NCBI GenBank assembly: GCA_965217895.1
Contig: CBDCJV010000002.1
Location: 4,064,001 to 4,128,000 of the forward strand
Direction: 5' to 3'
From: Waterburya sp.
GTDB taxonomy: Bacteria; Cyanobacteriota; Cyanobacteriia; Cyanobacteriales; Xenococcaceae
Length of the DNA stretch: 64,000 bases
The notes below the pieces were generated by a model. The model saw only the letters and a list, made by a program, of their open reading frames with translations, did not search any database and had not been told where the DNA came from. Numbering within the stretch: the first letter of the stretch is position 1; every line of letters begins with the position of its first letter. Shown here in pieces: positions 32,214-50,807 of this stretch. The position numbers were made by a program, and so were the translations under genes.

Positions 32214-32990
32214 TTACGCTCCCTGTGCCTCTGCCCGCATAAATCCCCCATCCATAACGTAAGTAGAACCCGTCACATAGTCCGAGTCAGACGAGGCTAA
32301 GAACAATGCTAGTTTGGCAACTTCTTCGGGCTGGGCTGCACGCTTCATGGGAATACTTTGCTCCATTGTTTGGCGCAGCTTAGGATCGTCAATAGCCTTC
32401 TGGTTGATGGGCGTTAGGGTCATACCTGGAGCTAGATTGTTGACGTTGATTCCGTCTTCGGCTAGTTCTAAAGCCAGCGTCCAGCTAAGACTGCGTAAGC
32501 CACCCTTGGACGCGCAGTAGTCAGCCGTATTAGGCGTGACCACTTCCTCATGAATAGAGGTTACGTTGATAATTTTTCCCTGACCGCCTTGTTCTTGGCG
32601 ATGACGGGCAAAAAGGCGACACAGGTAGAACGGGCCAAATAGGTTGGTACGGATCGTCCTTTCAAACTCTTCGACTGGCATTTCCACAACAGATTTATGA
32701 GCGCCGTTCGTACCAGCATTGTTGACCAAAATATCTAGCGTCTTAAACTCAGCTTGTGCCTGCTCGAACAACGCTTCTACCTGGTTAGAGTCACTTACAT
32801 CAGCTTGAACGACAAAGGCTCGCTGACCAGCAGCTTCGACCTTCGTGCGCGTTTCTTCTGCGCCTTCTTTGTCGGTATGGTAAACAATAATAATGTCTGC
32901 TCCTTCTTGGGCAAACTGACAGGCGATCGCCTGTCCGATACCTGAATCTGAGCCAGTAACCAGAGCAGTTTTATGGGTAAGTTTTTTCAT
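32214..32990 (-). CDS. SDR oxidoreductase, glucose 1-dehydrogenase-like
   Basis: TGSDSGIG, LVNNAG, TSIHE, YCASKGG, NNLAPG..TPIN. Confidence 0.9.
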   Translation of the reverse strand: MKKLTHKTALVTGSDSGIGQAIACQFAQEGADIIIVYHTDKEGAEETRTKVEAAGQRAFVVQADVSDSNQVEALFEQAQAEFKTLDILVNNAGTNGAHKSVVEMPVEEFERTIRTNLFGPFYLCRLFARHRQEQGGQGKIINVTSIHEEVVTPNTADYCASKGGLRSLSWTLALELAEDGINVNNLAPGMTLTPINQKAIDDPKLRQTMEQSIPMKRAAQPEEVAKLALFLASSDSDYVTGSTYVMDGGFMRAEAQGA

Positions 32991-33026: not shown

Positions 33027-33160
33027 TTAAGAATCCAATTGCTAGAAAAATTACAATGCAGATCTCAGATAAGGAAATGTTAACGAGCTATATGAAATTA
33101 GCTTAAACCAAGTAGACTGAGCATTTCTTCCTCGTTCTTGCCTAAACTTGTCAAATCTTG
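33027..33160 (-). promoter_or_regulatory. Duplicated promoter region, copy A (upstream of SDR-cupin-SDR)
   Basis: Colinear with 41496-41644: TTAAGAATC..AGAAAAATTACAAT..GATCTC..GCTTAAACCAA..GCATTTCTTC..TTCTTGCC..ACTTG..AATCTTG. Confidence 0.65.
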
Positions 33161-34936: not shown

Positions 34937-36580
34937 TTATGCGAGTTTTTTGTACTCTGGTTTGTAGACCTGCTGGCGAATGAATGTCTCAAGATCATTA
35001 GGGCGACCGACGCGGGCTAAATCGCTATCAAACACCAGCTTTGCCACCCGAATCGCCGTTTTGATTTCGATTTCGAGAATGTCGGACTGCAACGGATAAA
35101 TTAGCCCTTGTTTCATCTGGTCTTCTGGCACTTGGTCGGCAACGGCGTAAGCAGCCTCGATGAACATCTCATCAGAGACACGCTTGGCTTGCGTTGCATA
35201 GATAGCTAAACCAACTGCTGGAAAAATATAGAAATTGTTGGCTTGCCCAGGTAAAAAGGTCTTGCCGTCTAAATGAACGGGAGAAAACTGTACGCCAGCA
35301 GCGTAGATTGCCTTCCCCTTTGACCATTTATATGCCTGTTGGGCAGTACATTCGGCGTGTTCTGTCGGATTTGAAAGTGCTAGAATGACAGGGCGATCGT
35401 TTAGCTGCGACATCGTTTCGACCACCTCTTGAGAGAAAGCGCCGCCAACGGTGCTGACCCCAATAATTGTAGTAGGCTTAAGGCTCTTAATCGCTTCTAT
35501 AAAGTCTTTGGTGGGGTCATGCTTATGAGCGTAGGGCTTCTGGAAGTCTACGAGATCTGTACGAGTAGTTTCTAATAGTCCGTTGATATCAAACATCGAC
35601 ACCCGTGACTGAGCGTCTTTAAGCTCCATGCCCTGCTGCACGAGAGCGGTACAGAGCAAGTTAGCCAGACCAATTGCTGCTGAGCCTGCCCCCAAGAACA
35701 GATACTTCTCGTCTTTTAGTTCTGTGCCTTTAAGTTTGGTCGCGTTAATCATCCCTGCTAAGGTAATGCCTGCTGTACCCTGTACATCGTCGTTGTAGCA
35801 AGATACTTTGTCTCGATAGCGTTCTAGCAAATGAACCGCATCTACCCCCGTCCAGTCTTCAAAGTGGATGCAGCATTTGGGAAACACTTCCTGCACAGCA
35901 TCGACAAATTCATCTACAAAAGAATAAAGGTCTTCAGTGGAAGGACGGGGCTTTTGCAAGCCTAAATACAGCGGATCGTTTAAGTACTGCTCGTTATTTG
36001 TGCCAGCATCGAGATAGATAGGCAATAAGCCTTCTGGAGGAACACCCGCAGCAGCCGTGTAAAGCTGTAGCTTGCCTATGGGAATGCCCATACCGTTAGC
36101 ACCAAGATCGCCCAATCCTAGAATGCGTCCGCCATTGGTAACACAGATAACTCTGACATCTTTAACAGACCAGTTACGCAGAATCTCTTTTACCTGTCCT
36201 CGACGCTCGATTGAGATATACATACCTCTTGGGCTGCGGAAAATATGTCCAAACTTGAGACAAGCTTCACCAATGGTAGGGTCATAGACAATAGGTAGAA
36301 ACCGCGTTGGATCGGACATAATAGTTCGATAGAACAAGGTTTCATCATGATCTAGTAGATTCATTAGATAGATATATCGGTCGAGGTCGGTATTCTTGTT
36401 GCCAAGTTGCTGCATCACGCGCTTAAGCTGTAGATCTTCAGACTCAATTTTGTCGGGGATTAGCCCGATCAAACCGAGTGACTTTTTTTCATCTTCTGTG
36501 TAGGCGGTGGACTTATTCAATGCTGGGTCAAGTAGTAATTCAACGCCATGCTTGTTTGTCTTGTTCGTTTCAGTAGTCAT
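34937..36580 (-). CDS. maeA: NAD(P)-dependent malic enzyme (MaeA/SfcA type)
   Basis: PIVYDPTIG, RILGLGDLG..GMGIPIGK, HFED, NDDVQGT, GAGSA, LSNPT, GQANN.YIFP. Confidence 0.9.
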   Translation of the reverse strand: MTTETNKTNKHGVELLLDPALNKSTAYTEDEKKSLGLIGLIPDKIESEDLQLKRVMQQLGNKNTDLDRYIYLMNLLDHDETLFYRTIMSDPTRFLPIVYDPTIGEACLKFGHIFRSPRGMYISIERRGQVKEILRNWSVKDVRVICVTNGGRILGLGDLGANGMGIPIGKLQLYTAAAGVPPEGLLPIYLDAGTNNEQYLNDPLYLGLQKPRPSTEDLYSFVDEFVDAVQEVFPKCCIHFEDWTGVDAVHLLERYRDKVSCYNDDVQGTAGITLAGMINATKLKGTELKDEKYLFLGAGSAAIGLANLLCTALVQQGMELKDAQSRVSMFDINGLLETTRTDLVDFQKPYAHKHDPTKDFIEAIKSLKPTTIIGVSTVGGAFSQEVVETMSQLNDRPVILALSNPTEHAECTAQQAYKWSKGKAIYAAGVQFSPVHLDGKTFLPGQANNFYIFPAVGLAIYATQAKRVSDEMFIEAAYAVADQVPEDQMKQGLIYPLQSDILEIEIKTAIRVAKLVFDSDLARVGRPNDLETFIRQQVYKPEYKKLA

Positions 36581-36648: not shown

Positions 36649-38055
36649 CTACGACTTCTTCAGATCCTGGGGACGAACCATCTTGGCGGGAGCGACTACT
36701 TTGTCAAACTCATCAGCAGAAATATATTCCAACTTTAGAGCAGCTTCTTTAAGCGTCATATCGTGGTCAAGCGCATAGTGCGCTACCTTTGAAGACTTAT
36801 CGTAGCCAATCACGGGACTAAGAGCCGTTACTAGCATGAGAGACTGCTTAACAAAGGCATCAATCTGTTTGTGATTGGGTTCTGTGCCAACCACCAAAAA
36901 CTTACTAAAGTTGTGGCAGCTATCGCTCATAATCCGAATCGAGTGCATCACGTTATGAATGATTAGTGGTTTGTAAACGTTCATTTCTAGATAACCACTG
37001 GCACTCCCAAACGTTACCGCCACATCATTGGCTATTACCTGCACTGCCACCATCGCCAAGGCTTCACACTGGGTTGGATTTACCTTTCCTGGCATGATTG
37101 ACGAACCAGGCTCGTTGGCTGGAATATTTAGCTCGTTAATTCCACAGCGCGGTCCACAGCTCAACAGACGAATATCATTGGCAATTTTGTATAGAGAGCT
37201 TGCCAGGGTTTTCAGCGCACCACTGAGCATTACCAGTGCGTCGTGGCTACCCTGCACCGTAAACTTGTTGGGCGCGCTCACAAAGGGCAGTTTAGTAAGA
37301 TTAGCAATCTCTTTGGCAACTGCATCGGCAAATTCAGGCGTTGAATTAATGCCCGTGCCAACTGCCGTACCACCCAGGGCGAGGCGATACACTCCTTTCA
37401 AGCTATCGCTTAGGTGTTCTAAGTCATCATCCAACAATCCTACATAGCCTGAAAACTCCTGTCCTAGTGTCAGCGGTGTTGCATCCTGTAAGTGAGTGCG
37501 ACCAATCTTGACTATATCTTTCCAGATTTCTGCTTTGGCATTGAAAGCATTACGCAGTGCTTTAACCGAGGGCATCAGGTTTTGAGTTACCCCCTTAGCA
37601 GCCGTCATGTACATCGCCGAGGGAAACGAGTCGTTAGACGACTGGGACATATTCACATGATCGTTGGGATGCACAGGCTTTTTGCTGCCCAGCGGATTTC
37701 CCGCTAGCTGACAACAGCGATTAGAAATTACTTCGTTGACATTCATGTTGAACTGAGTGCCACTACCCGTCATCCACACGTACAAGGGAAACTGATCTAA
37801 ATGCTGCCCTGCTAAAATCTCATCGCATACTTGAACAATCAGATCGTGCTGTTCATCTTCTAACTCCCCAGATTGATGATTGACGATCGCGGCTGCTTTT
37901 TTGAGTTCTGCATATGCCCGAATCATCTCGCGGGGAATTAAATCATCCCCAATACTAAAGTGTTCTAGCGATCGCTGGGTCTGCGCTCCCCAAAGCTTGC
38001 CAGCAGGTACTTTTACTTCCCCAAGGCTGTCGGTTTCAACCCGAAAATCAGTCAT
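36649..38055 (-). CDS. fumC: Class II fumarate hydratase
   Basis: [56 protein letters not shown]. Confidence 0.95.
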
Positions 38056-38235
38056 ATGAATGTTCCTATATCTATTTCTTAAATGCTTTACTAGACCGAC
38101 AACTGTCGCTCTATGGAATGATTGCTACATCGAGTAATAAAGCTGGAAAAAAATATTGCTGCGATGGATCTACAACACTAAAGTTGTAAAAATCGGTTTT
38201 TGTCAATTATATATTTGACATAATATACTTTATGA

Positions 38236-38450
38236 TTCAATAAGATCGTGTTGCTCGTTACCTAGCTCTTCAAATTGACGCTCGCAGCCGCTTTTCCGAG
38301 TTCTGCGTATGCTCGAATCATCTCTCGTGGGATTAAGTCATTTCCAATGCTGAAGTGTTCTAGCGATCGCTGGCTCTGCGCGCCTCAAAGCTTGTCAGCA
38401 GATACTTTAACTTCACCGAGGCTATCGGTTTCCAGCCGAAACTCAGCCAG
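38236..38450 (-). pseudogene. fumC: Degenerate second copy of the fumC 5' end
   Basis: [21 protein letters not shown](TGA 38385-38387)[34 protein letters not shown], then a frameshift to [10 protein letters not shown] (fumC has [10 protein letters not shown]). Confidence 0.88.
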
Positions 38451-38580
38451 ATAGCCACTCTTATAACTAAGTGATGTTTAAAACCTTATACGTCCTGAGT
38501 TGTGGTTCTTAGAGGTATGGTATAGAAAGAACTCTCTTGCTCGAGCGCTCATTTTTTCAAGCAAAATAATTGCTGCTGTT

Positions 38581-39486
38581 TTAGGAAGATCCTTGGCTGA
38601 GAAATTGTTTAATTGTCATGGGTTTGATGTCAGGATAGCGATCGTTTTGAATGCGATCTAGTTTGCCCTTGCCCGATACCATCGCGTAAATGTACTGGTC
38701 GTAAACATATTCTTCGATTGAACTGGCTGACGCTTTTTTGTCAGCAATCCAGGCTTTCATCTCAGAGATACTACCCAATGATTTTTCGGTTAGTTTGTTG
38801 CCTGTCGCTGCTTCATAAGTAGACTTCAACTGTTTTGGGGTCATAGTGTCACCTGCGACTTCCAGCGCGGTGTTTGCTAGGTCTGGGTCGCTCACCGCTT
38901 CGGCTGTGTACTTGGCAGTATCATCAGTAGTCGTAAAATTCATCGGCATTTCACCATCGCCCCAATATTGAAATGCCTGATGTTCTAGGTCAAACAGTGG
39001 CATATAGGTGATGTACTCCATAAACATCCCGTTCAAAACTAGGGTGTATTCCAAACCGCTTTGCTGAAGATGCTCAAACACTTCCTTGCGCATATCTAAA
39101 TTGTGATTGTCGCCATAATCGAGCTGGCGATAGTCAGCAGAATAATCTGAGGGAATGAACCGCTTCACCCCTTGCTGTTTGGCAGCATCAATCAAGTTTT
39201 TCTGTCCTGGCACAGTCACTTCACTATTCCCAATCGCCGAGACGACAACATCGACCCCTGCGCAGGCTGGCAGTAACGTCTCAGGCTGCATTACATCGGC
39301 TTCGACGAGGGTTGCGCCCTTGGCTTTCATTGCGTCTATCTTTTGACGATTTTCTGGCTTGGGATCGTTACTTTGTCGCACCATTGCGCGAACATTAAGA
39401 TTACCTTTGTCGAGTAGAGCAAGAACAATCTTAGAACCTAGCATTCCAGTAGAGCCAGCGACTAAAACCGTTAATTTTGTAGCCAT
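38581..39486 (-). CDS. NmrA / isoflavone reductase-like NAD(P)-binding protein
   Basis: VAGSTGMLG, GVDVVVSA, LIDAAKQQGVKRFIPSDY. Confidence 0.88.
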   Translation of the reverse strand: MATKLTVLVAGSTGMLGSKIVLALLDKGNLNVRAMVRQSNDPKPENRQKIDAMKAKGATLVEADVMQPETLLPACAGVDVVVSAIGNSEVTVPGQKNLIDAAKQQGVKRFIPSDYSADYRQLDYGDNHNLDMRKEVFEHLQQSGLEYTLVLNGMFMEYITYMPLFDLEHQAFQYWGDGEMPMNFTTTDDTAKYTAEAVSDPDLANTALEVAGDTMTPKQLKSTYEAATGNKLTEKSLGSISEMKAWIADKKASASSIEEYVYDQYIYAMVSGKGKLDRIQNDRYPDIKPMTIKQFLSQGSS

Positions 39487-39627
39487 GATTGATTTTCCTC
39501 TTAAAGTTTACAGAAATTGTTCTTTGTTGCTATTTCTCAATGAGACAGGCTTATTACCTAAAAAGTAATTGCACAAAAAGCGATCGAGTTGTTGGAGCTA
39601 AACTCGAAGCGTCCAGTGTCGGGGAAT

Positions 39628-40137
39628 TTAGTCTGTAAAACCTTCTAAGTAAATAGTTTTAGCAGCAGGATATTTTTCAACAACTGACTCAAGCACTTTG
39701 TTTGCTTCTTCTTGAGTCGGAAAAGACACTGAAGGGGGTAAAGTACGTGCTTCTGCGGGTACAGTCGTTGCCATAATCACATATTCAAACCCTGCGGGCA
39801 CATAAGTATTGATGAGTCGTACTGTTTCTGAGTCGATTTGAAAGGCGTGTTTTGTGCCTGGTGGAATTGCCACAAACGAGCCAGCGGTTCCTTTAATTGG
39901 CTTATCTTCAACAAAGAAGGTGGCTTCGCCTTCGAGGATGTAGAAGGTTTCCTGTGCTACCTCATGGATATGCGGTCCTGCTGATGGACCTTGCGGTATT
40001 AACTGCTCTATACAGGAGTAGGCTCCATTCGTATCTTCGGCAGTCGCCAGCATAGTCCAGAGAATACCCAAACCCCAGTAAGCAGGAGCCTCAGTATTGC
40101 TGGCTTCAAAAGCTTGTAGCTTATTTTGTGCATTCAT
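39628..40137 (-). CDS. Cupin-domain protein (quercetin dioxygenase-like)
   Basis: GPHIHEVAQETFYILEG...IPPGTKHAF..PAGFE. ATG 40137 follows an AAGGA RBS. Confidence 0.85.
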   Translation of the reverse strand: MNAQNKLQAFEASNTEAPAYWGLGILWTMLATAEDTNGAYSCIEQLIPQGPSAGPHIHEVAQETFYILEGEATFFVEDKPIKGTAGSFVAIPPGTKHAFQIDSETVRLINTYVPAGFEYVIMATTVPAEARTLPPSVSFPTQEEANKVLESVVEKYPAAKTIYLEGFTD

Positions 40138-40315
40138 ATATAAATCCTTTAATTTGATAGGTGATGACAGCGATCGCCGACTTTTCATCTTGATCGGGTT
40201 CAAATTGAGTTTAGTGCGAACCCAATCTATTGTTTAACGATTCCAATTTTCTCAAGTCTTCACCGCTATAGCTTGCAACCTTAATTTAGTGCCATTTATA
40301 CATAGCTTAATAAGT

Positions 40316-41251
40316 TTAAGCATCGAAATCTATCATGTTCTTGCTGTCTTGAATGTATTGCCTTGGAGTAACACAAACAAGCCGCTTGAAGTGCGATCCA
40401 AAGTGGCTTTGACTCGCAAATCCAGTTTCAGCAGCGACTTTCTCGATCAGCCACTCTTTTCTCAGCAGCCGTTTTGCCTGCAAAATTCGCACTTGAATTT
40501 GATAAGCGTGCGGTGGCAGTCCAAACGTTTTGCGAAACTCTCGATTGAGATGAAAGGAACTCAAGCTTGCAACCCGTGCTAATTGCTCTAACGAGATTTC
40601 TCGATCATAATTTTCTTCTATATATGCCCGAACGCGACCGACAGGCTGACGTTCTTCCCCTAACTTGGCAAGACAAGGTGAATTTTTAGCACAGCGTAGA
40701 ATCAATTTGGCTAACAAATCTAGTATTAATGTCTGTTGTTCGAGTTGAGAACTAGATTGTGATAAAACTTGATGAACTCGAACGATTTGCTTATTCAGGT
40801 CGCGGTCATGGACTAGAGGCATCGGAAAAAATGGCAGATCCGTTTTGCGCCCTGCAACTTCTGTTGCAACTTGTTGAAGCAAATCTGTACCTATCCGTAG
40901 CCCTCGAAAAACACGGTCTCGATCGCTTTTAGACTCAGCATAATGTGCTTCTCCAGGTTGTATTACTACCAGGGTATCTGATGGAACGCTATGTATCACA
41001 CCTCGGTAATTAAACCGCCAGCCGTCACCCTGCCTGATGCCAAGCTCCAGTTCTTCATGGAAATGGCGCGGCAATGAATGGCTTTTAGAAACACCATGCA
41101 CTAACTCGATCGATTGCAAGTGCTGAGGTCGCCAAACTTTAGTGCGTGATAGATTTACTTTTGGCGATCGCTGGGTCTGCGCTCCCCAAAGCTTGTCAGC
41201 GGGTACTTTTACTTCCCCAAGGCTGTCGGCTTCAACTCGAAAATCAGTCAT
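40316..41251 (-). CDS. AraC-family regulator whose first 29 codons derive from fumC
   Basis: PRHFHEE ligand-binding domain and double HTH (SLEQLA..LSSFHL.R.F..GLPPH.Y; GFASQSHF..FKR). The N-terminus [29 protein letters not shown] matches FumC. Confidence 0.9.
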   Translation of the reverse strand: MTDFRVEADSLGEVKVPADKLWGAQTQRSPKVNLSRTKVWRPQHLQSIELVHGVSKSHSLPRHFHEELELGIRQGDGWRFNYRGVIHSVPSDTLVVIQPGEAHYAESKSDRDRVFRGLRIGTDLLQQVATEVAGRKTDLPFFPMPLVHDRDLNKQIVRVHQVLSQSSSQLEQQTLILDLLAKLILRCAKNSPCLAKLGEERQPVGRVRAYIEENYDREISLEQLARVASLSSFHLNREFRKTFGLPPHAYQIQVRILQAKRLLRKEWLIEKVAAETGFASQSHFGSHFKRLVCVTPRQYIQDSKNMIDFDA

Positions 41252-41317
41252 AATTACTTTATCAGTTAATATAGGTATTTTTTGTTTCTTCTTTGAGCTG
41301 TAATAGTTTGTTTGTCT

Positions 41318-41494
41318 AATTAGCCGTTAGGGCGATCGCAGCGGGTAAAACTACAATCATCATCTTTGGTCGAGCAGAACCAGATTGTAGTCACCAGGAA
41401 CTGTAAAATAGTGTTCTAACCCAACGGTTTCGAGAAGTTCGGTAAGATAAGTGCCGATATTATGTTGAATACTCGGATTGTTTGGTTTATTCAT
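41318..41494 (-). pseudogene. pdc: Pyruvate / alpha-keto acid decarboxylase remnant
   Basis: MNKPNNPSIQHNIGTYLTELLETVGLEHYFTVPGDYNLVLLDQR* (ATG 41494, TGA 41360-41362) matches the PDC N-terminal motif G.YL...L...G..H.F.V.GDYNL.LLD. A shifted frame then reads DDCS, as near PDC C-termini. Confidence 0.8.
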
Positions 41495-41495
41495 A

Positions 41496-41644
41496 TTAAG
41501 AATCTAACGATCAGAAAAATTACAATCGAGATCTCTGTGCAATAAAGAAATGCTTAAATATTATTGATGAATCATTAATAATGAGCTTAAACCAAATAGA
41601 GCGGGCATTTCTTCCATTTTCTTGCCCAGACTTGCCTAATCTTG
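41496..41644 (-). promoter_or_regulatory. Duplicated promoter region, copy B (upstream of the pdc remnant)
   Basis: Colinear with 33027-33160. Confidence 0.65.
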
Positions 41645-41662
41645 CGCTACCAGACAGACAAA

Positions 41663-41866
41663 ATGAAATTTGAAACGGAAAGATTGAGGATTAGGGAAAT
41701 CCTGGACAGTGATTTTGATGGTTTTTACGATCTTCATAGAAATAAAAATGTAATGGGTATGATTCCAACAAAAACCTTAGATTTTGAGCAAACCCAGCAA
41801 GAATTTCAAAAAATTATTCGAGAAACTGAAATAGGTGACTTCCGAACCAGTTTTACCACCAATTAA
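41663..41866 (+). pseudogene. Truncated RimJ/RimL-type GNAT N-terminus
   Basis: MKFETERLRIREILDSDFDGFYDLH...V start, terminating after about 67 codons. Confidence 0.6.
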
Positions 41867-41973
41867 CCTACTACCAATCGCAGCACCAGCTACACCGCCA
41901 CTTACCGCGCCAAATCCTGTTTTTATGGCGTTATGCTTCTGTTGCTGAGTAAATTCTTGTTTTCTTCGTTCAT
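41835..41973 (-). pseudogene. Glycine-zipper protein remnant (frameshifted and truncated)
   Basis: ATG 41973 MNEE, then a frameshift to QEFTQQQKHNAIKTGFGAVSGGVAGAAIGSRLIGGKTG. Runs into the GNAT remnant. Confidence 0.55.
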
Positions 41974-41990
41974 CTTAGGCTATTTTCTCT

Positions 41991-42113
41991 TACTTTTTAC
42001 TGTCTTGGTGCGCGTTCCCAAGCCAGTCCGTTAGGCGGGTTTCCCGACTTAAAACAAAGGACTTGTCCGCATGTACTGCTGAATCCTTCAGGGGGTCGCA
42101 CTGCTTTTTACTT
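41991..42113 (-). repeat. Short dispersed repeat element, copy 1
   Basis: Reverse complement GTAAAAAGCAGTGCGACCCC...GGGAACGCGCACCAAGACAGTAAAAAGTA shares both ends with 46679-46799. Confidence 0.75.
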
Positions 42114-43890: not shown

Positions 43891-44228
43891 TGCTAATTTC
43901 CTTGTTTTTATTTAAAGATGATTTACTTATTACCTTAAAGCGATCGCATCTCAAAGTTGTGTCATTGCTATTACATTTGGTGAAATTGTTATTTATTAAA
44001 GTTATAGCAGTTCTCATTTAAATGAGGTAAGTTAATAACCTTGGTTTTTGTTAATCGTTAATTGTTAATCAGGTGTACCCTTATTACCTATTACCTCGGC
44101 TTCATAGATTGAGAGCGTGCGTAACATCAGTTCTTTAAAAAGTTTGTTGGTTTCTCTTTCTGGTCGAATAGTCGAATAGTATTGTATCTTGAGTTTTGGG
44201 ACAAGATCTGGAAATATCTGTAGGAAAG

Positions 44229-45629
44229 ATGACAAACAACTATCGCACCGAAGAAGACTCTATGGGGTCAAAGGAAATACCCTCTAACGTATATTATGGT
44301 ATTCAGACTTTAAGAGCTACAGAGAATTTTCCGATTAGCGGTATCAAACCTTTGGCAACTTATGTAGATGCCTGTATCCTGATTAAAAAAGCTACAGCGA
44401 TCGCCAATGGAGAATTAGGCTGTATAGACTCAGAAATTAGTCAGGCAATTGTCAAAGCTGCGGATGAAATTCTAGAGGGAAGTCTGCGAGATCAGTTTGT
44501 GGTCGATGTCTATCAAGCTGGGGCAGGAACATCTCATCACATGAACGTGAACGAGGTTTTGGCTAATCGAGCTTTAGAGATATTAGGAGATGAAAAAGGT
44601 AACTATAAGAAAGTTAGTCCTAACGATCACGTTAATTATGGTCAGTCTACCAATGATGTAATTCCTACGGCGATAAGGGTAGGAGCATTGTTAGCTTTAG
44701 ATAAAACTCTTTATCCTGCTTTAGATAGTGCGATCGCCTCAGTTGAGCAAAAGGCGATAGAATTCCAAGATATTGTTAAATCTGGTCGCACCCATATGCA
44801 GGATGCTGTACCTGTGCGTTTAGGGGCAGGATTTCAAGCCTGGGGACAAATTTTACAAGACCATAAGGGCAGAATTGAAGCTGCTGCTGGCGATCTTTAC
44901 AGTTTAGGTTTAGGCGGTAGTGCTACAGGCACAGGACTAAATACCCATCCCCAATATCGTCATCGTGCAGCCGAATTGCTAGGAGAATTTATTGACAAAC
45001 CGCTACAGCCTGCCCCGCACCTAATGGCAGCTATGCAAAGCATGAGTCCTTTTGTAAACGTCTCAGGGAGCTTACGTAACCTAGCACAAGATTTAGTCAA
45101 GATTTCCCATGATTTGCGTCTGCTGGATTCAGGTCCACAAACAGGATTTAAAGAAATTCAGTTACCCGCAGTGCAGCCAGGCTCATCAATTATGCCAGGA
45201 AAATATAACCCTGTAATGGCGGAAATGACCTCAATGGTATGTTTTCAAGTGATGGGCTACGATACGGCGATCGCTTTTGCAGCACAGGCAGGACAGTTAG
45301 AATTAAACGTGATGATGCCTCTGATCGCCTATGATTTAATTCACAGCATCGAAATCTTAGGCAATACTATTGATAGCTTGAGTAAGCGTTGTTTGCTAGG
45401 CATTACTGCCCGTCGCGATCGCTGTTTGGCCTATGCTGAAGGTAGTTTAGCTTTAGTTACGGCTCTTAATACTCATATTGGTTATCTAAAAGCAGCAGAT
45501 GTAGCCAAGAAGTCTTTAGCTACTGGAAAATCTATTAGAGCGATCGTTTTAGAAGCAGGTTTAATGGACGAAAATCAATTAGCAGCAGTCTTAGATTTAG
45601 GTAAAATGAGTAATTTGCCCGAATCTTGA
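44229..45629 (+). CDS. aspA: Aspartate ammonia-lyase (fumarase/aspartase superfamily)
   Basis: [55 protein letters not shown]. Confidence 0.8.
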   Translation: MTNNYRTEEDSMGSKEIPSNVYYGIQTLRATENFPISGIKPLATYVDACILIKKATAIANGELGCIDSEISQAIVKAADEILEGSLRDQFVVDVYQAGAGTSHHMNVNEVLANRALEILGDEKGNYKKVSPNDHVNYGQSTNDVIPTAIRVGALLALDKTLYPALDSAIASVEQKAIEFQDIVKSGRTHMQDAVPVRLGAGFQAWGQILQDHKGRIEAAAGDLYSLGLGGSATGTGLNTHPQYRHRAAELLGEFIDKPLQPAPHLMAAMQSMSPFVNVSGSLRNLAQDLVKISHDLRLLDSGPQTGFKEIQLPAVQPGSSIMPGKYNPVMAEMTSMVCFQVMGYDTAIAFAAQAGQLELNVMMPLIAYDLIHSIEILGNTIDSLSKRCLLGITARRDRCLAYAEGSLALVTALNTHIGYLKAADVAKKSLATGKSIRAIVLEAGLMDENQLAAVLDLGKMSNLPES

Positions 45630-50066: not shown

Positions 50067-50807
50067 ATGCCCCAAGGTTGGACAGAAATTTGGCTATGGG
50101 TAGCTTTTATCGGCATGGTAATTGGGTTCGTAATTTTAGGCATAAGAGCGATCTCTCACCGTCACAGAGAAGGCATGGAGTTTAGCATGATAAGCTTCTT
50201 TATTTGTCTTTGGGCTGCCTGTATGTATCTCTCAATGGCTCTCGGTCACACCATCACCCTAGCAGGTGGTCAAGAGGTATACTGGGGACGCTATCTAGAC
50301 TGGATTGTAACTACACCACTGCTGCTTCTCGATCTAGGAATTTTAGCAGGCGCGCGACCAAAATTGATCGGCGCAGTTATTGGTGCAGATATTTTTATGA
50401 TCGTCACGGGGGTTATTGCCTCGCTGACAACTCCTCCAGAGGATTTTATTTGGTATGTAATTAGTTGCGGGGCTTTTGTGGCTCTTCTGTGGGCTTTGTT
50501 TAGCGAATATAGTGCTACGGCTCGCCGTCGTGACGACAAAGTAAGCAAGCTGTTTTCTACTATGCGTAATCTGCTGGTTGTATTGTGGATTTGCTACCCA
50601 ATTGTCTGGATCTTAGGAGCGCAGGGAATTACAATTATTGGCACAGCATGGGAGGCGTTTTTCTATGCAGTGCTAGATGTGACAGCTAAAGTAATCTTTG
50701 GTTTAATTCTGACTTCTGCTAGTGCAACAACATTAGCAAAAGCAAGCAATTCCGACAGAATGATGAAGACAGCCGAGTCATACATACAAGGATATCAAGG
50801 AGAGTGA
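50067..50807 (+). CDS. Microbial rhodopsin, cyanorhodopsin-like DTD-motif proton pump
   Basis: Seven TMs. Helix C RYLDWIVTTPLLLLDL corresponds to BR D85/T89/D96. Helix G LDVTAKVIFG carries D212 and the retinal Lys. AGGAG RBS. Confidence 0.92.
   Translation: MPQGWTEIWLWVAFIGMVIGFVILGIRAISHRHREGMEFSMISFFICLWAACMYLSMALGHTITLAGGQEVYWGRYLDWIVTTPLLLLDLGILAGARPKLIGAVIGADIFMIVTGVIASLTTPPEDFIWYVISCGAFVALLWALFSEYSATARRRDDKVSKLFSTMRNLLVVLWICYPIVWILGAQGITIIGTAWEAFFYAVLDVTAKVIFGLILTSASATTLAKASNSDRMMKTAESYIQGYQGE

Follow-up and report, generated by a model that had tools for sequence, protein, structure and literature searches.

The chimeric fumC::araC gene in the genome of Waterburya sp. is best read, at a probability that we put at roughly 0.55, as the left-hand scar of an insertion of 3.2 kb in a resident fumC gene, one end of the block having been joined end-to-end at the palindromic octamer HIP1 (GCGATCGC) and the other by a homologous crossover. 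The layout of this locus, U-R1-HIP1-X-R2-HIP1-D, recurs at 12 loci of the genome (referred to as G000), and such HIP1-ended scars are most likely the products of integrase-free insertion with target duplication, which suggests that HIP1 is a joining point when DNA is gained. Taken alone, the fusion gene is of little weight, being found in one strain and in a decaying region; its value is that of one member of a HIP1-ended insertion signature, and the gene itself is probably an insertion by-product.

The features of the locus in the window (the whole stretch of 64,000 nucleotides analysed) are as follows.

41495..41653, minus strand: upstream region of the pyruvate-decarboxylase-like (pdc) gene, a putative promoter region; over 41365-41653, identity to the pdc start and its upstream sequence in G020 is 90%.
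41366..41494, minus strand: 5' remnant (43 codons) of the pyruvate-decarboxylase-like TPP enzyme gene; G023 and G424 have full TPP_enzyme genes with a matching 5' end.
41316..41363, minus strand: 3' remnant (15 codons and stop) of a Mem_trans (PF03547) transporter gene, by C-terminus match to PF03547 genes.
41164..41251, minus strand: R1, the orphaned first 88 nt of fumC (84/88 to fumC), from which the fusion takes its start codon and 29 residues.
41164..41171, no strand assigned: HIP1 octamer at the fumC-side breakpoint (sequence comparison).
41162..41163, minus strand: two junction bases, forming with the last octamer base a Pro codon at the position of the orthologues' start Met (orthologue alignment).
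40316..41161, minus strand: AraC body, intact from codon 2 onward (PF02311, PF00165, PF12833; 72-83% identity to 27 orthologues in alignment A1).
39628..40137, minus strand: Cupin_2 gene (Pfam, ORF, conserved order).
38581..39486, minus strand: NmrA-like gene (Pfam, ORF, conserved order).
38225..38450, minus strand: older fumC 5' pseudo-copy with its start lost and an in-frame stop (83.8% to fumC over 179 nt; also in G019).
38056..38224, minus strand: spacer upstream of intact fumC, ~99% identical to G019.
37968..38055, minus strand: R2, the second 88-nt repeat copy (84/88) and start of intact fumC, ending in HIP1 at 37968-37975.
36649..38055, minus strand: intact class II fumarase gene fumC (Lyase_1, FumaraseC_C).
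34937..36580, minus strand: malic enzyme gene, mae (Pfam).

The two copies of the fumC start, 41164-41251 and 37968-38055, are identical at 84 of 88 nt with the HIP1 octamer at their 3' end, the similarity starting 1 base ahead of the ATG and stopping with the octamer; this match, its end at HIP1 and the intact in-frame AraC, from which the sequence-only reading had started, are all confirmed. Over the five bases past the octamer, the chimera reads CAAAA, where fumC has TAGAA and the aligned araC orthologues have TGAAA; the fumC-side break lies 0-2 nt beyond the octamer, and the bases CA match neither parent cleanly. The fusion ORF (40316-41251, minus strand) is an open frame of 311 aa, whose product scores above the Pfam cut-offs for AraC_binding (PF02311, 42 bits), HTH_18 (PF12833, 72.7) and HTH_AraC (PF00165, 57.3), and thereby has the AraC/XylS layout of an N-terminal ligand-binding domain and a C-terminal double helix-turn-helix. 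Neither Lyase_1 nor FumaraseC_C is present in the fusion protein according to Pfam, and its FumC part, at 29 residues, falls short of a class II fumarase. Past the fumC start, the first alternative in frame is a TTG no earlier than codon 45, so that the full AraC relies on the fumC start. The predicted structure is strand-rich and then helical, with the body folded as an AraC protein (mean pLDDT 67.9) and residues 1-35 unstructured (pLDDT < 50). The RNA fold around the start codon is unremarkable (z 0.54), the 88-nt leader carries two private changes, and the exact fusion protein forms a singleton cluster. In the first helix-turn-helix, residue 238 (window 40538-40540) is Glu where 26/27 aligned orthologues have Ser, a replacement that may alter DNA recognition.

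The junction itself appears to be sound. Contigs of two runs, X1 and X2, span 40796-41193 with 0 differences from the window, at a depth of 26.9 (X1) and 197.4 (X2) against 29.3 and 201-220 in neighbouring single-copy pieces. These contigs hold only 30 letters on the fumC side, 1 short of the bridging rule, and X1 and X2 represent one sample, possibly the source of the assembly, so that they speak against a consensus error without being an independent confirmation. Misassembly across the 88-nt repeat might be suspected, as the run contigs break within a 32-nt stretch common to R1 and R2, leaving the copies unphased, and a second strain is present in run X1. However, the junction occurs at single-copy depth and without differences in both runs, the assembly consists of only 2 contigs, and R1 and R2 are distinguishable at 4 sites; misassembly as the source of the fusion is unlikely, and in our estimate exceedingly so.

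On the araC side, the homologues show what the gene looked like without the leader. A protein search within 171-545 aa found a FumC-like leader in none of the 119 AraC homologues listed, as had been anticipated, and 87/119 are 281-282 aa long. The Pro codon of the fusion is the start codon in 21 orthologous loci (20 ATG, 1 TTG). The further expectation that the homologues would carry HIP1 at the same codon failed: HIP1 is found at the araC start codon in 0/21 orthologous loci, and the loose ends of runs X3, X4, X6 and X7 (X4-X7 containing only distant relatives) show a normal araC ATG, with no HIP1 there. HIP1 occurs at -28 in 2/21 loci, these variants being only ~83% identical, and in frame at codons 11-13 in 12/21, with the junction elsewhere. 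The AraC-side break is thus at its start codon, and the joint, with HIP1 on the fumC side alone, is one-sided. Loss of the start Met alone with the frame kept is unlikely for a random break; the exact in-frame joint may reflect selection for a working AraC, or merely which cases get noticed. The order araC-cupin-nmrA is kept in several orthologous loci, bearing out the claim that these genes travel as a block.

The sequence ahead of the leader belongs to a decayed gene cluster. The Mem_trans remnant, which contains a HIP1 at 41332-41339, has its matches in genes of the fumC-mae clusters of G229 and G325; G424 likewise has a matching remnant. A reading of the 113 nt ahead of the leader as the pdc C-terminus was rejected, these being the transporter C-terminus and a spacer by homology to PF03547 genes. 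The proposal that the regulator was placed under the pdc promoter holds in part: read-through is plausible, but pdc breaks off at codon 43, where the final 15 codons of the transporter follow, and a promoter and terminator scan gave results at chance level. Intact clusters are found elsewhere as pdc-mae-SDR-fumC-mae (G424) and as fumC-mae with the transporter (G229, G325), and, because such clusters of pdc, transporter, fumC and mae parts exist, the leader is likely what remains of a resident fumC in a malate-to-pyruvate cluster that has decayed. The pdc gene of G020 (L043:5621-6343) is broken as well, by an internal deletion, and the gene ends in unrelated sequence.

G019 has two related fumC-mae cassettes, each with its own deletion. 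Compared with one of them, G000 differs at 1/200 nt over the spacer and fumC nt 1-50, whereas beyond nt 50 the next two 100-nt blocks show 11 and 13 differences; R2 follows G019 up to nt 56 and then equals R1 at 3/3 informative sites in nt 57-88. This mosaic switch fits a donor-to-resident crossover within the repeat, although G019 could be the genome that switched. The older fumC 5' duplicate (38225-38450), located 395 nt upstream of intact fumC, has its 3' end away from HIP1, an octamer lying within it at 38363-38370, and is possibly an earlier event of the same kind. In G019, an araC fragment is fused to the fumC pseudo-start by a deletion without HIP1 (L041:10214-10420). The same joint (window 38449 to 40636) is present in run X1 at a depth of 17.3, which indicates a second strain with that allele in the sample. 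An internal nmrA deletion in G019 (L042:10546-10738) has HIP1 as its joint, with HIP1 at both ends in the orthologue L128, and looks like a true HIP1 × HIP1 deletion.

The 88-nt copies lie 3196 nt apart and bracket a 3.2-kb block (araC-cupin-nmrA-fumC remnant). With a chromosomal HIP1 density of 1.11 per kb (2.4 per kb inside local repeats), the chance that one break falls within 3 positions of an octamer end is ~0.3%. In a first self-comparison, 24/540 two-copy repeat ends stopped at HIP1 against ~2 expected. The strict local test considered low-copy direct repeats 40-400 nt long, with an identity of 80% or more and a separation of 0.25-12 kb, and retained 99/361 local matches with 172/198 ends abrupt; its filters were set after the first HIP1-end results were known. 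As many as 21/172 abrupt ends stop at a shared HIP1 (15 at 0, 6 at +1), against an expectation of 0.57 from genome density or 1.26 from the density inside repeats, and at every other distance up to 39 nt there are 2 ends at most, so that a sharp peak stands at 0-1 nt, 36-fold over genome density. The same count for 200 abundant control octamers gave 5 against 12.0 expected (0.42-fold). Since clustered ends are not independent and the filters were chosen post hoc, the locus count is the fair measure: HIP1 ends occur at 12/45 loci, 2 of the 21 ends being those of fumC::araC. The genome-wide test thereby removes the worry that fumC::araC was cherry-picked, and repeats elsewhere in the genome also end at HIP1 far above chance. 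Distant two-copy repeats end at HIP1 in 7/309 cases against 1.04 expected, and 80/99 local repeats do not end at HIP1. Three candidates of an anchored scan (E10, E12a and E12b), outside the 21, were dropped, their homology extending past the octamer.

The enclosed blocks are 0.6-6.3 kb long and carry toxin-antitoxin genes, small regulators and enzymes, and in one case a Uma2-family gene. No integrase or transposase family was found among the 35 ORFs that lie within or next to the other blocks, nor among 34 queries from the window. By our own reading of the ORF layout, the repeat lies over or close to one of the two ends of an intact ORF at 8/12 loci. No Ku gene was found in a search of the genome, which has six PF00145 methyltransferase genes. 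Two clusters of nested repeats that end at HIP1 and are filled with toxin-antitoxin modules (L276, G000:C2 2376931-2383389; L278, 3516952-3525541) look like repeated use of one site.

Site searches in relatives gave clean empty sites (U-R-HIP1-D) in 2/8 cases; one candidate failed, with homology reaching 12 nt past the octamer, and the other sites searched were rearranged. At a symporter-gene locus (G000:C2 127981/128616), G020 and G023 have a single repeat copy without the insert, whereas G019 has the insert; at a Mg-chelatase-family locus (2232772/2233877), the insert is absent in 5/5 genomes searched. At both loci, it is the resident end that is duplicated. In an MFS gene, G019 holds a different insert, which has its end at the same HIP1. 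For one further locus of G000, the block starts after a HIP1 in two unrelated contexts (G020 and G017), which means that two-sided joints occur too. Further 3' pieces of the symporter gene (L360 and L361, in G019 and G020) break off at this gene's HIP1 position or at a variant differing from it by one base, and the sequences beyond them are unrelated. Where R1 and R2 differ, over five loci, both alleles occur in relatives at 18/44 differences, which suggests that the second repeat copy may arrive with a donor from another lineage, although homoplasy may inflate the allele sharing. For fumC itself, an empty site (transporter-fumC-mae without the block) was found in none of the 60 family genomes or 60 relatives searched, the DNA searches scoring 4-6 candidates per genome.

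Replication in other genomes points in the right direction with small numbers and is thin. In unselected 400-kb stretches of four genomes, 1/61 ends is at HIP1 (expected 0.15, P 0.14), a number below that which the G000 rate would give, on few events; in 631 kb of loci retrieved for other purposes, the count is 2/35 (expected 0.10), one of them in another family. The total outside G000 is accordingly 3/96 against 0.25 expected, replication outside the genus consisting of one 400-kb stretch and these additional loci. Among the general breakpoints between G019 and G000 there is no clear excess, 3/232 abrupt breakpoints lying at HIP1 against ~1 expected, under a null in which control octamers are inflated 3.7-fold; the claim therefore covers local duplications around blocks, not all rearrangements.

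In the predicted mechanism of the insertion, the resident chromosome would open or stall at HIP1, and incoming DNA composed of araC-cupin-nmrA-fumC remnant-spacer-fumC start would be joined by one of its ends, end-to-end, at the resident HIP1, its other end being anchored by a homologous crossover within the fumC start that it carried itself. The homologous arm would thereby rebuild the interrupted gene, leaving fumC whole and the old start orphaned, and the latter would come to lie in frame on araC in place of the lost start codon. Translation from the fumC start would then yield an AraC regulator that carries an unstructured leader of 29 residues, its transcription possibly coming from the pdc region. 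That it is expressed and active as a regulator is a supposition to which we give somewhat less than even odds. We speculate, more tentatively still, that HIP1 is the default joining point of integrase-free gene acquisition in cyanobacteria. If this is true, thousands of HIP1 sites would allow donor DNA with one homologous arm to be fixed at HIP1; the joints would duplicate the end of the target gene, keep the gene intact and sometimes create fusions such as fumC::araC, and HIP1 would gain a natural, genome-visible role in horizontal transfer.

A deletion between tandem fumC-mae cassettes, running from HIP1 of the first fumC to the araC start codon, is the nearest alternative to this insertion. 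The region is prone to deletion, with pdc joined to the 3' end of the transporter here and, in G019, two fumC-mae cassettes, one araC-to-fumC-remnant deletion and one nmrA deletion, and the failure to find an empty fumC site in the 60 family genomes and 60 relatives searched also speaks for it. It leaves unexplained, however, the departure of intact fumC from the G019 type at nt 56/57 and its agreement with R1 at 3/3 sites thereafter, and two sister loci of the same layout have empty alleles in several relatives, so that we regard the deletion as unlikely. Somewhat less likely again is a HIP1 × HIP1 crossover through a HIP1 in the 5' untranslated region of araC, followed by a small deletion that took away the araC start and set the frame. 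Such a site exists at -28 in 2/21 orthologous loci, 3/119 homologous proteins begin with MRSP, HIP1 precedes the block start of another G000 locus in two other contexts (G020 and G017), and both positions brought together by the nmrA deletion of G019 are HIP1 in L128; yet the -28 variants are only ~83% identical, the 30 nt that precede the ATG are free of HIP1 in the closest araC relative seen (X3, 13 differences in 163 nt), and this route requires at least one further event. Of the original proposal of recombination at HIP1, the fumC side is supported, as it ends at HIP1; HIP1 in both parents, as in the smtB case described below, is not seen (0/21 orthologous loci).

It might also be supposed that HIP1 lies at the repeat end by chance or by an effect of alignment, decaying repeats merely seeming to stop at an abundant and conserved octamer. 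HIP1 is indeed frequent (1.11 per kb, and 2.4 per kb inside repeats), general breakpoints show no clear excess, and the araC side is without it. Nevertheless, the peak at 0-1 nt is 36-fold over genome density when control octamers reach 0.42-fold, identity in fumC::araC drops from 95% to background level within a coding sequence that runs on in its homologues, and the empty sites at two loci fix the break at HIP1, all of which makes this explanation very improbable.

The insertion favoured here is worth comparing with homology-facilitated illegitimate recombination, in which one homologous anchor and one non-homologous joint bring in foreign genes without an integrase, and which deletes resident DNA by the anchor and uses short microhomologies. 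Here, in contrast, the resident end is duplicated, not lost, as the loci with empty sites show, and the joint lies at a fixed motif. As for the anchor, the fumC mosaic switch fits a crossover, either G000 or G019 having switched. Scars of the kind reported here are not described in the accessible text of PMC5861425, PMC3025956, PMC9239245 and PMC5101192.

A closer precedent is insertion with long target duplication, in which a block of < 20 kb is flanked by direct repeats of > 30 bp with no mobile-element enzyme (PMC2853133), the repeat being single in strains without the block and a double-strand break being suggested (PMC2853133; Furuta, Abe and Kobayashi 2010). In fumC::araC, the repeat is likewise > 30 bp (88 nt), the block < 20 kb, and no integrase or transposase is present, and a single-copy empty strain was found for two sister loci, though not for fumC (60 family genomes and 60 relatives searched). 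Long target duplication is described for restriction-modification cargo (PMC2853133), which differs from the araC, cupin and nmrA genes found here; the sister blocks carry regulators, enzymes and toxin-antitoxin genes, and their end is HIP1. A Microcystis case has an 88/88 repeat with CGATCG inside, not at the end (PMC2853133), and the searchable part of the supplement of that paper gave 0 matches to HIP1 or the octamer and names no repeat-end motif.

The function of HIP1 itself is still called unresolved (PMC5861425; PMC13756078), and the octamer has been tied to smtB deletion and to higher transformation (PMC13756078). The smtB excision in Synechococcus PCC 6301 took place between two HIP1 sites (Gupta et al. 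1993, via PMC13756078) and is likewise a natural rearrangement with a HIP1 breakpoint, a type to which the G019 nmrA deletion appears to belong; it is, however, a deletion with HIP1 on both sides, whereas fumC::araC has HIP1 on one side in all relatives seen and is accompanied by the duplication of a gene end. In Synechococcus PCC 7002, HIP1-dependent recombination of plasmids (Akiyama et al. 1998, cited in PMC4390886) made HIP1 a crossover joining unrelated DNAs, as here, but was a laboratory plasmid fusion, with long target duplication unmentioned in the accessible text of PMC4390886. HIP1 has further been noted near an inversion, where plasmid fusion was suggested (PMC9239245), and HIP1 in homologous arms has been linked to integration efficiency, with a hotspot-like role proposed (Kamoku and Nielsen, 10.1101/2024.09.10.611283); that study concerns the frequency of engineered integration, and its accessible text is without the words junction, breakpoint and illegitimate. 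Prior evidence for HIP1 recombination, as far as these sources present it, thus consists of a selected deletion, a plasmid assay and transformation frequencies. In the present case, natural scars in a wild genome end at HIP1 36-fold over expectation, with empty alleles in relatives; no paper in the full-text literature searched, to which the subscription papers (the 1993, 1997 and 1998 originals) do not belong, describes duplicated gene ends that stop at HIP1. HIP1-ended repeats provide a countable signature for any cyanobacterial genome and make the old question about HIP1 testable.

Several minor features of the window may finally be recorded. The pdc upstream sequence 41496-41644 is 72% similar to 33027-33160, upstream of a short-chain dehydrogenase gene at 32990, and this shared regulatory element of the pdc and short-chain dehydrogenase upstream regions is also found in G019 and G020. 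A second Lyase_1/FumaraseC_C gene lies at 44196-45629 on the opposite strand, 3 kb from the fusion, and a microbial rhodopsin gene (PF01036) at 50067-50807. A small-gene remnant at 41846-42001 has homologues at G000:C2 910014-910200 and in G020.
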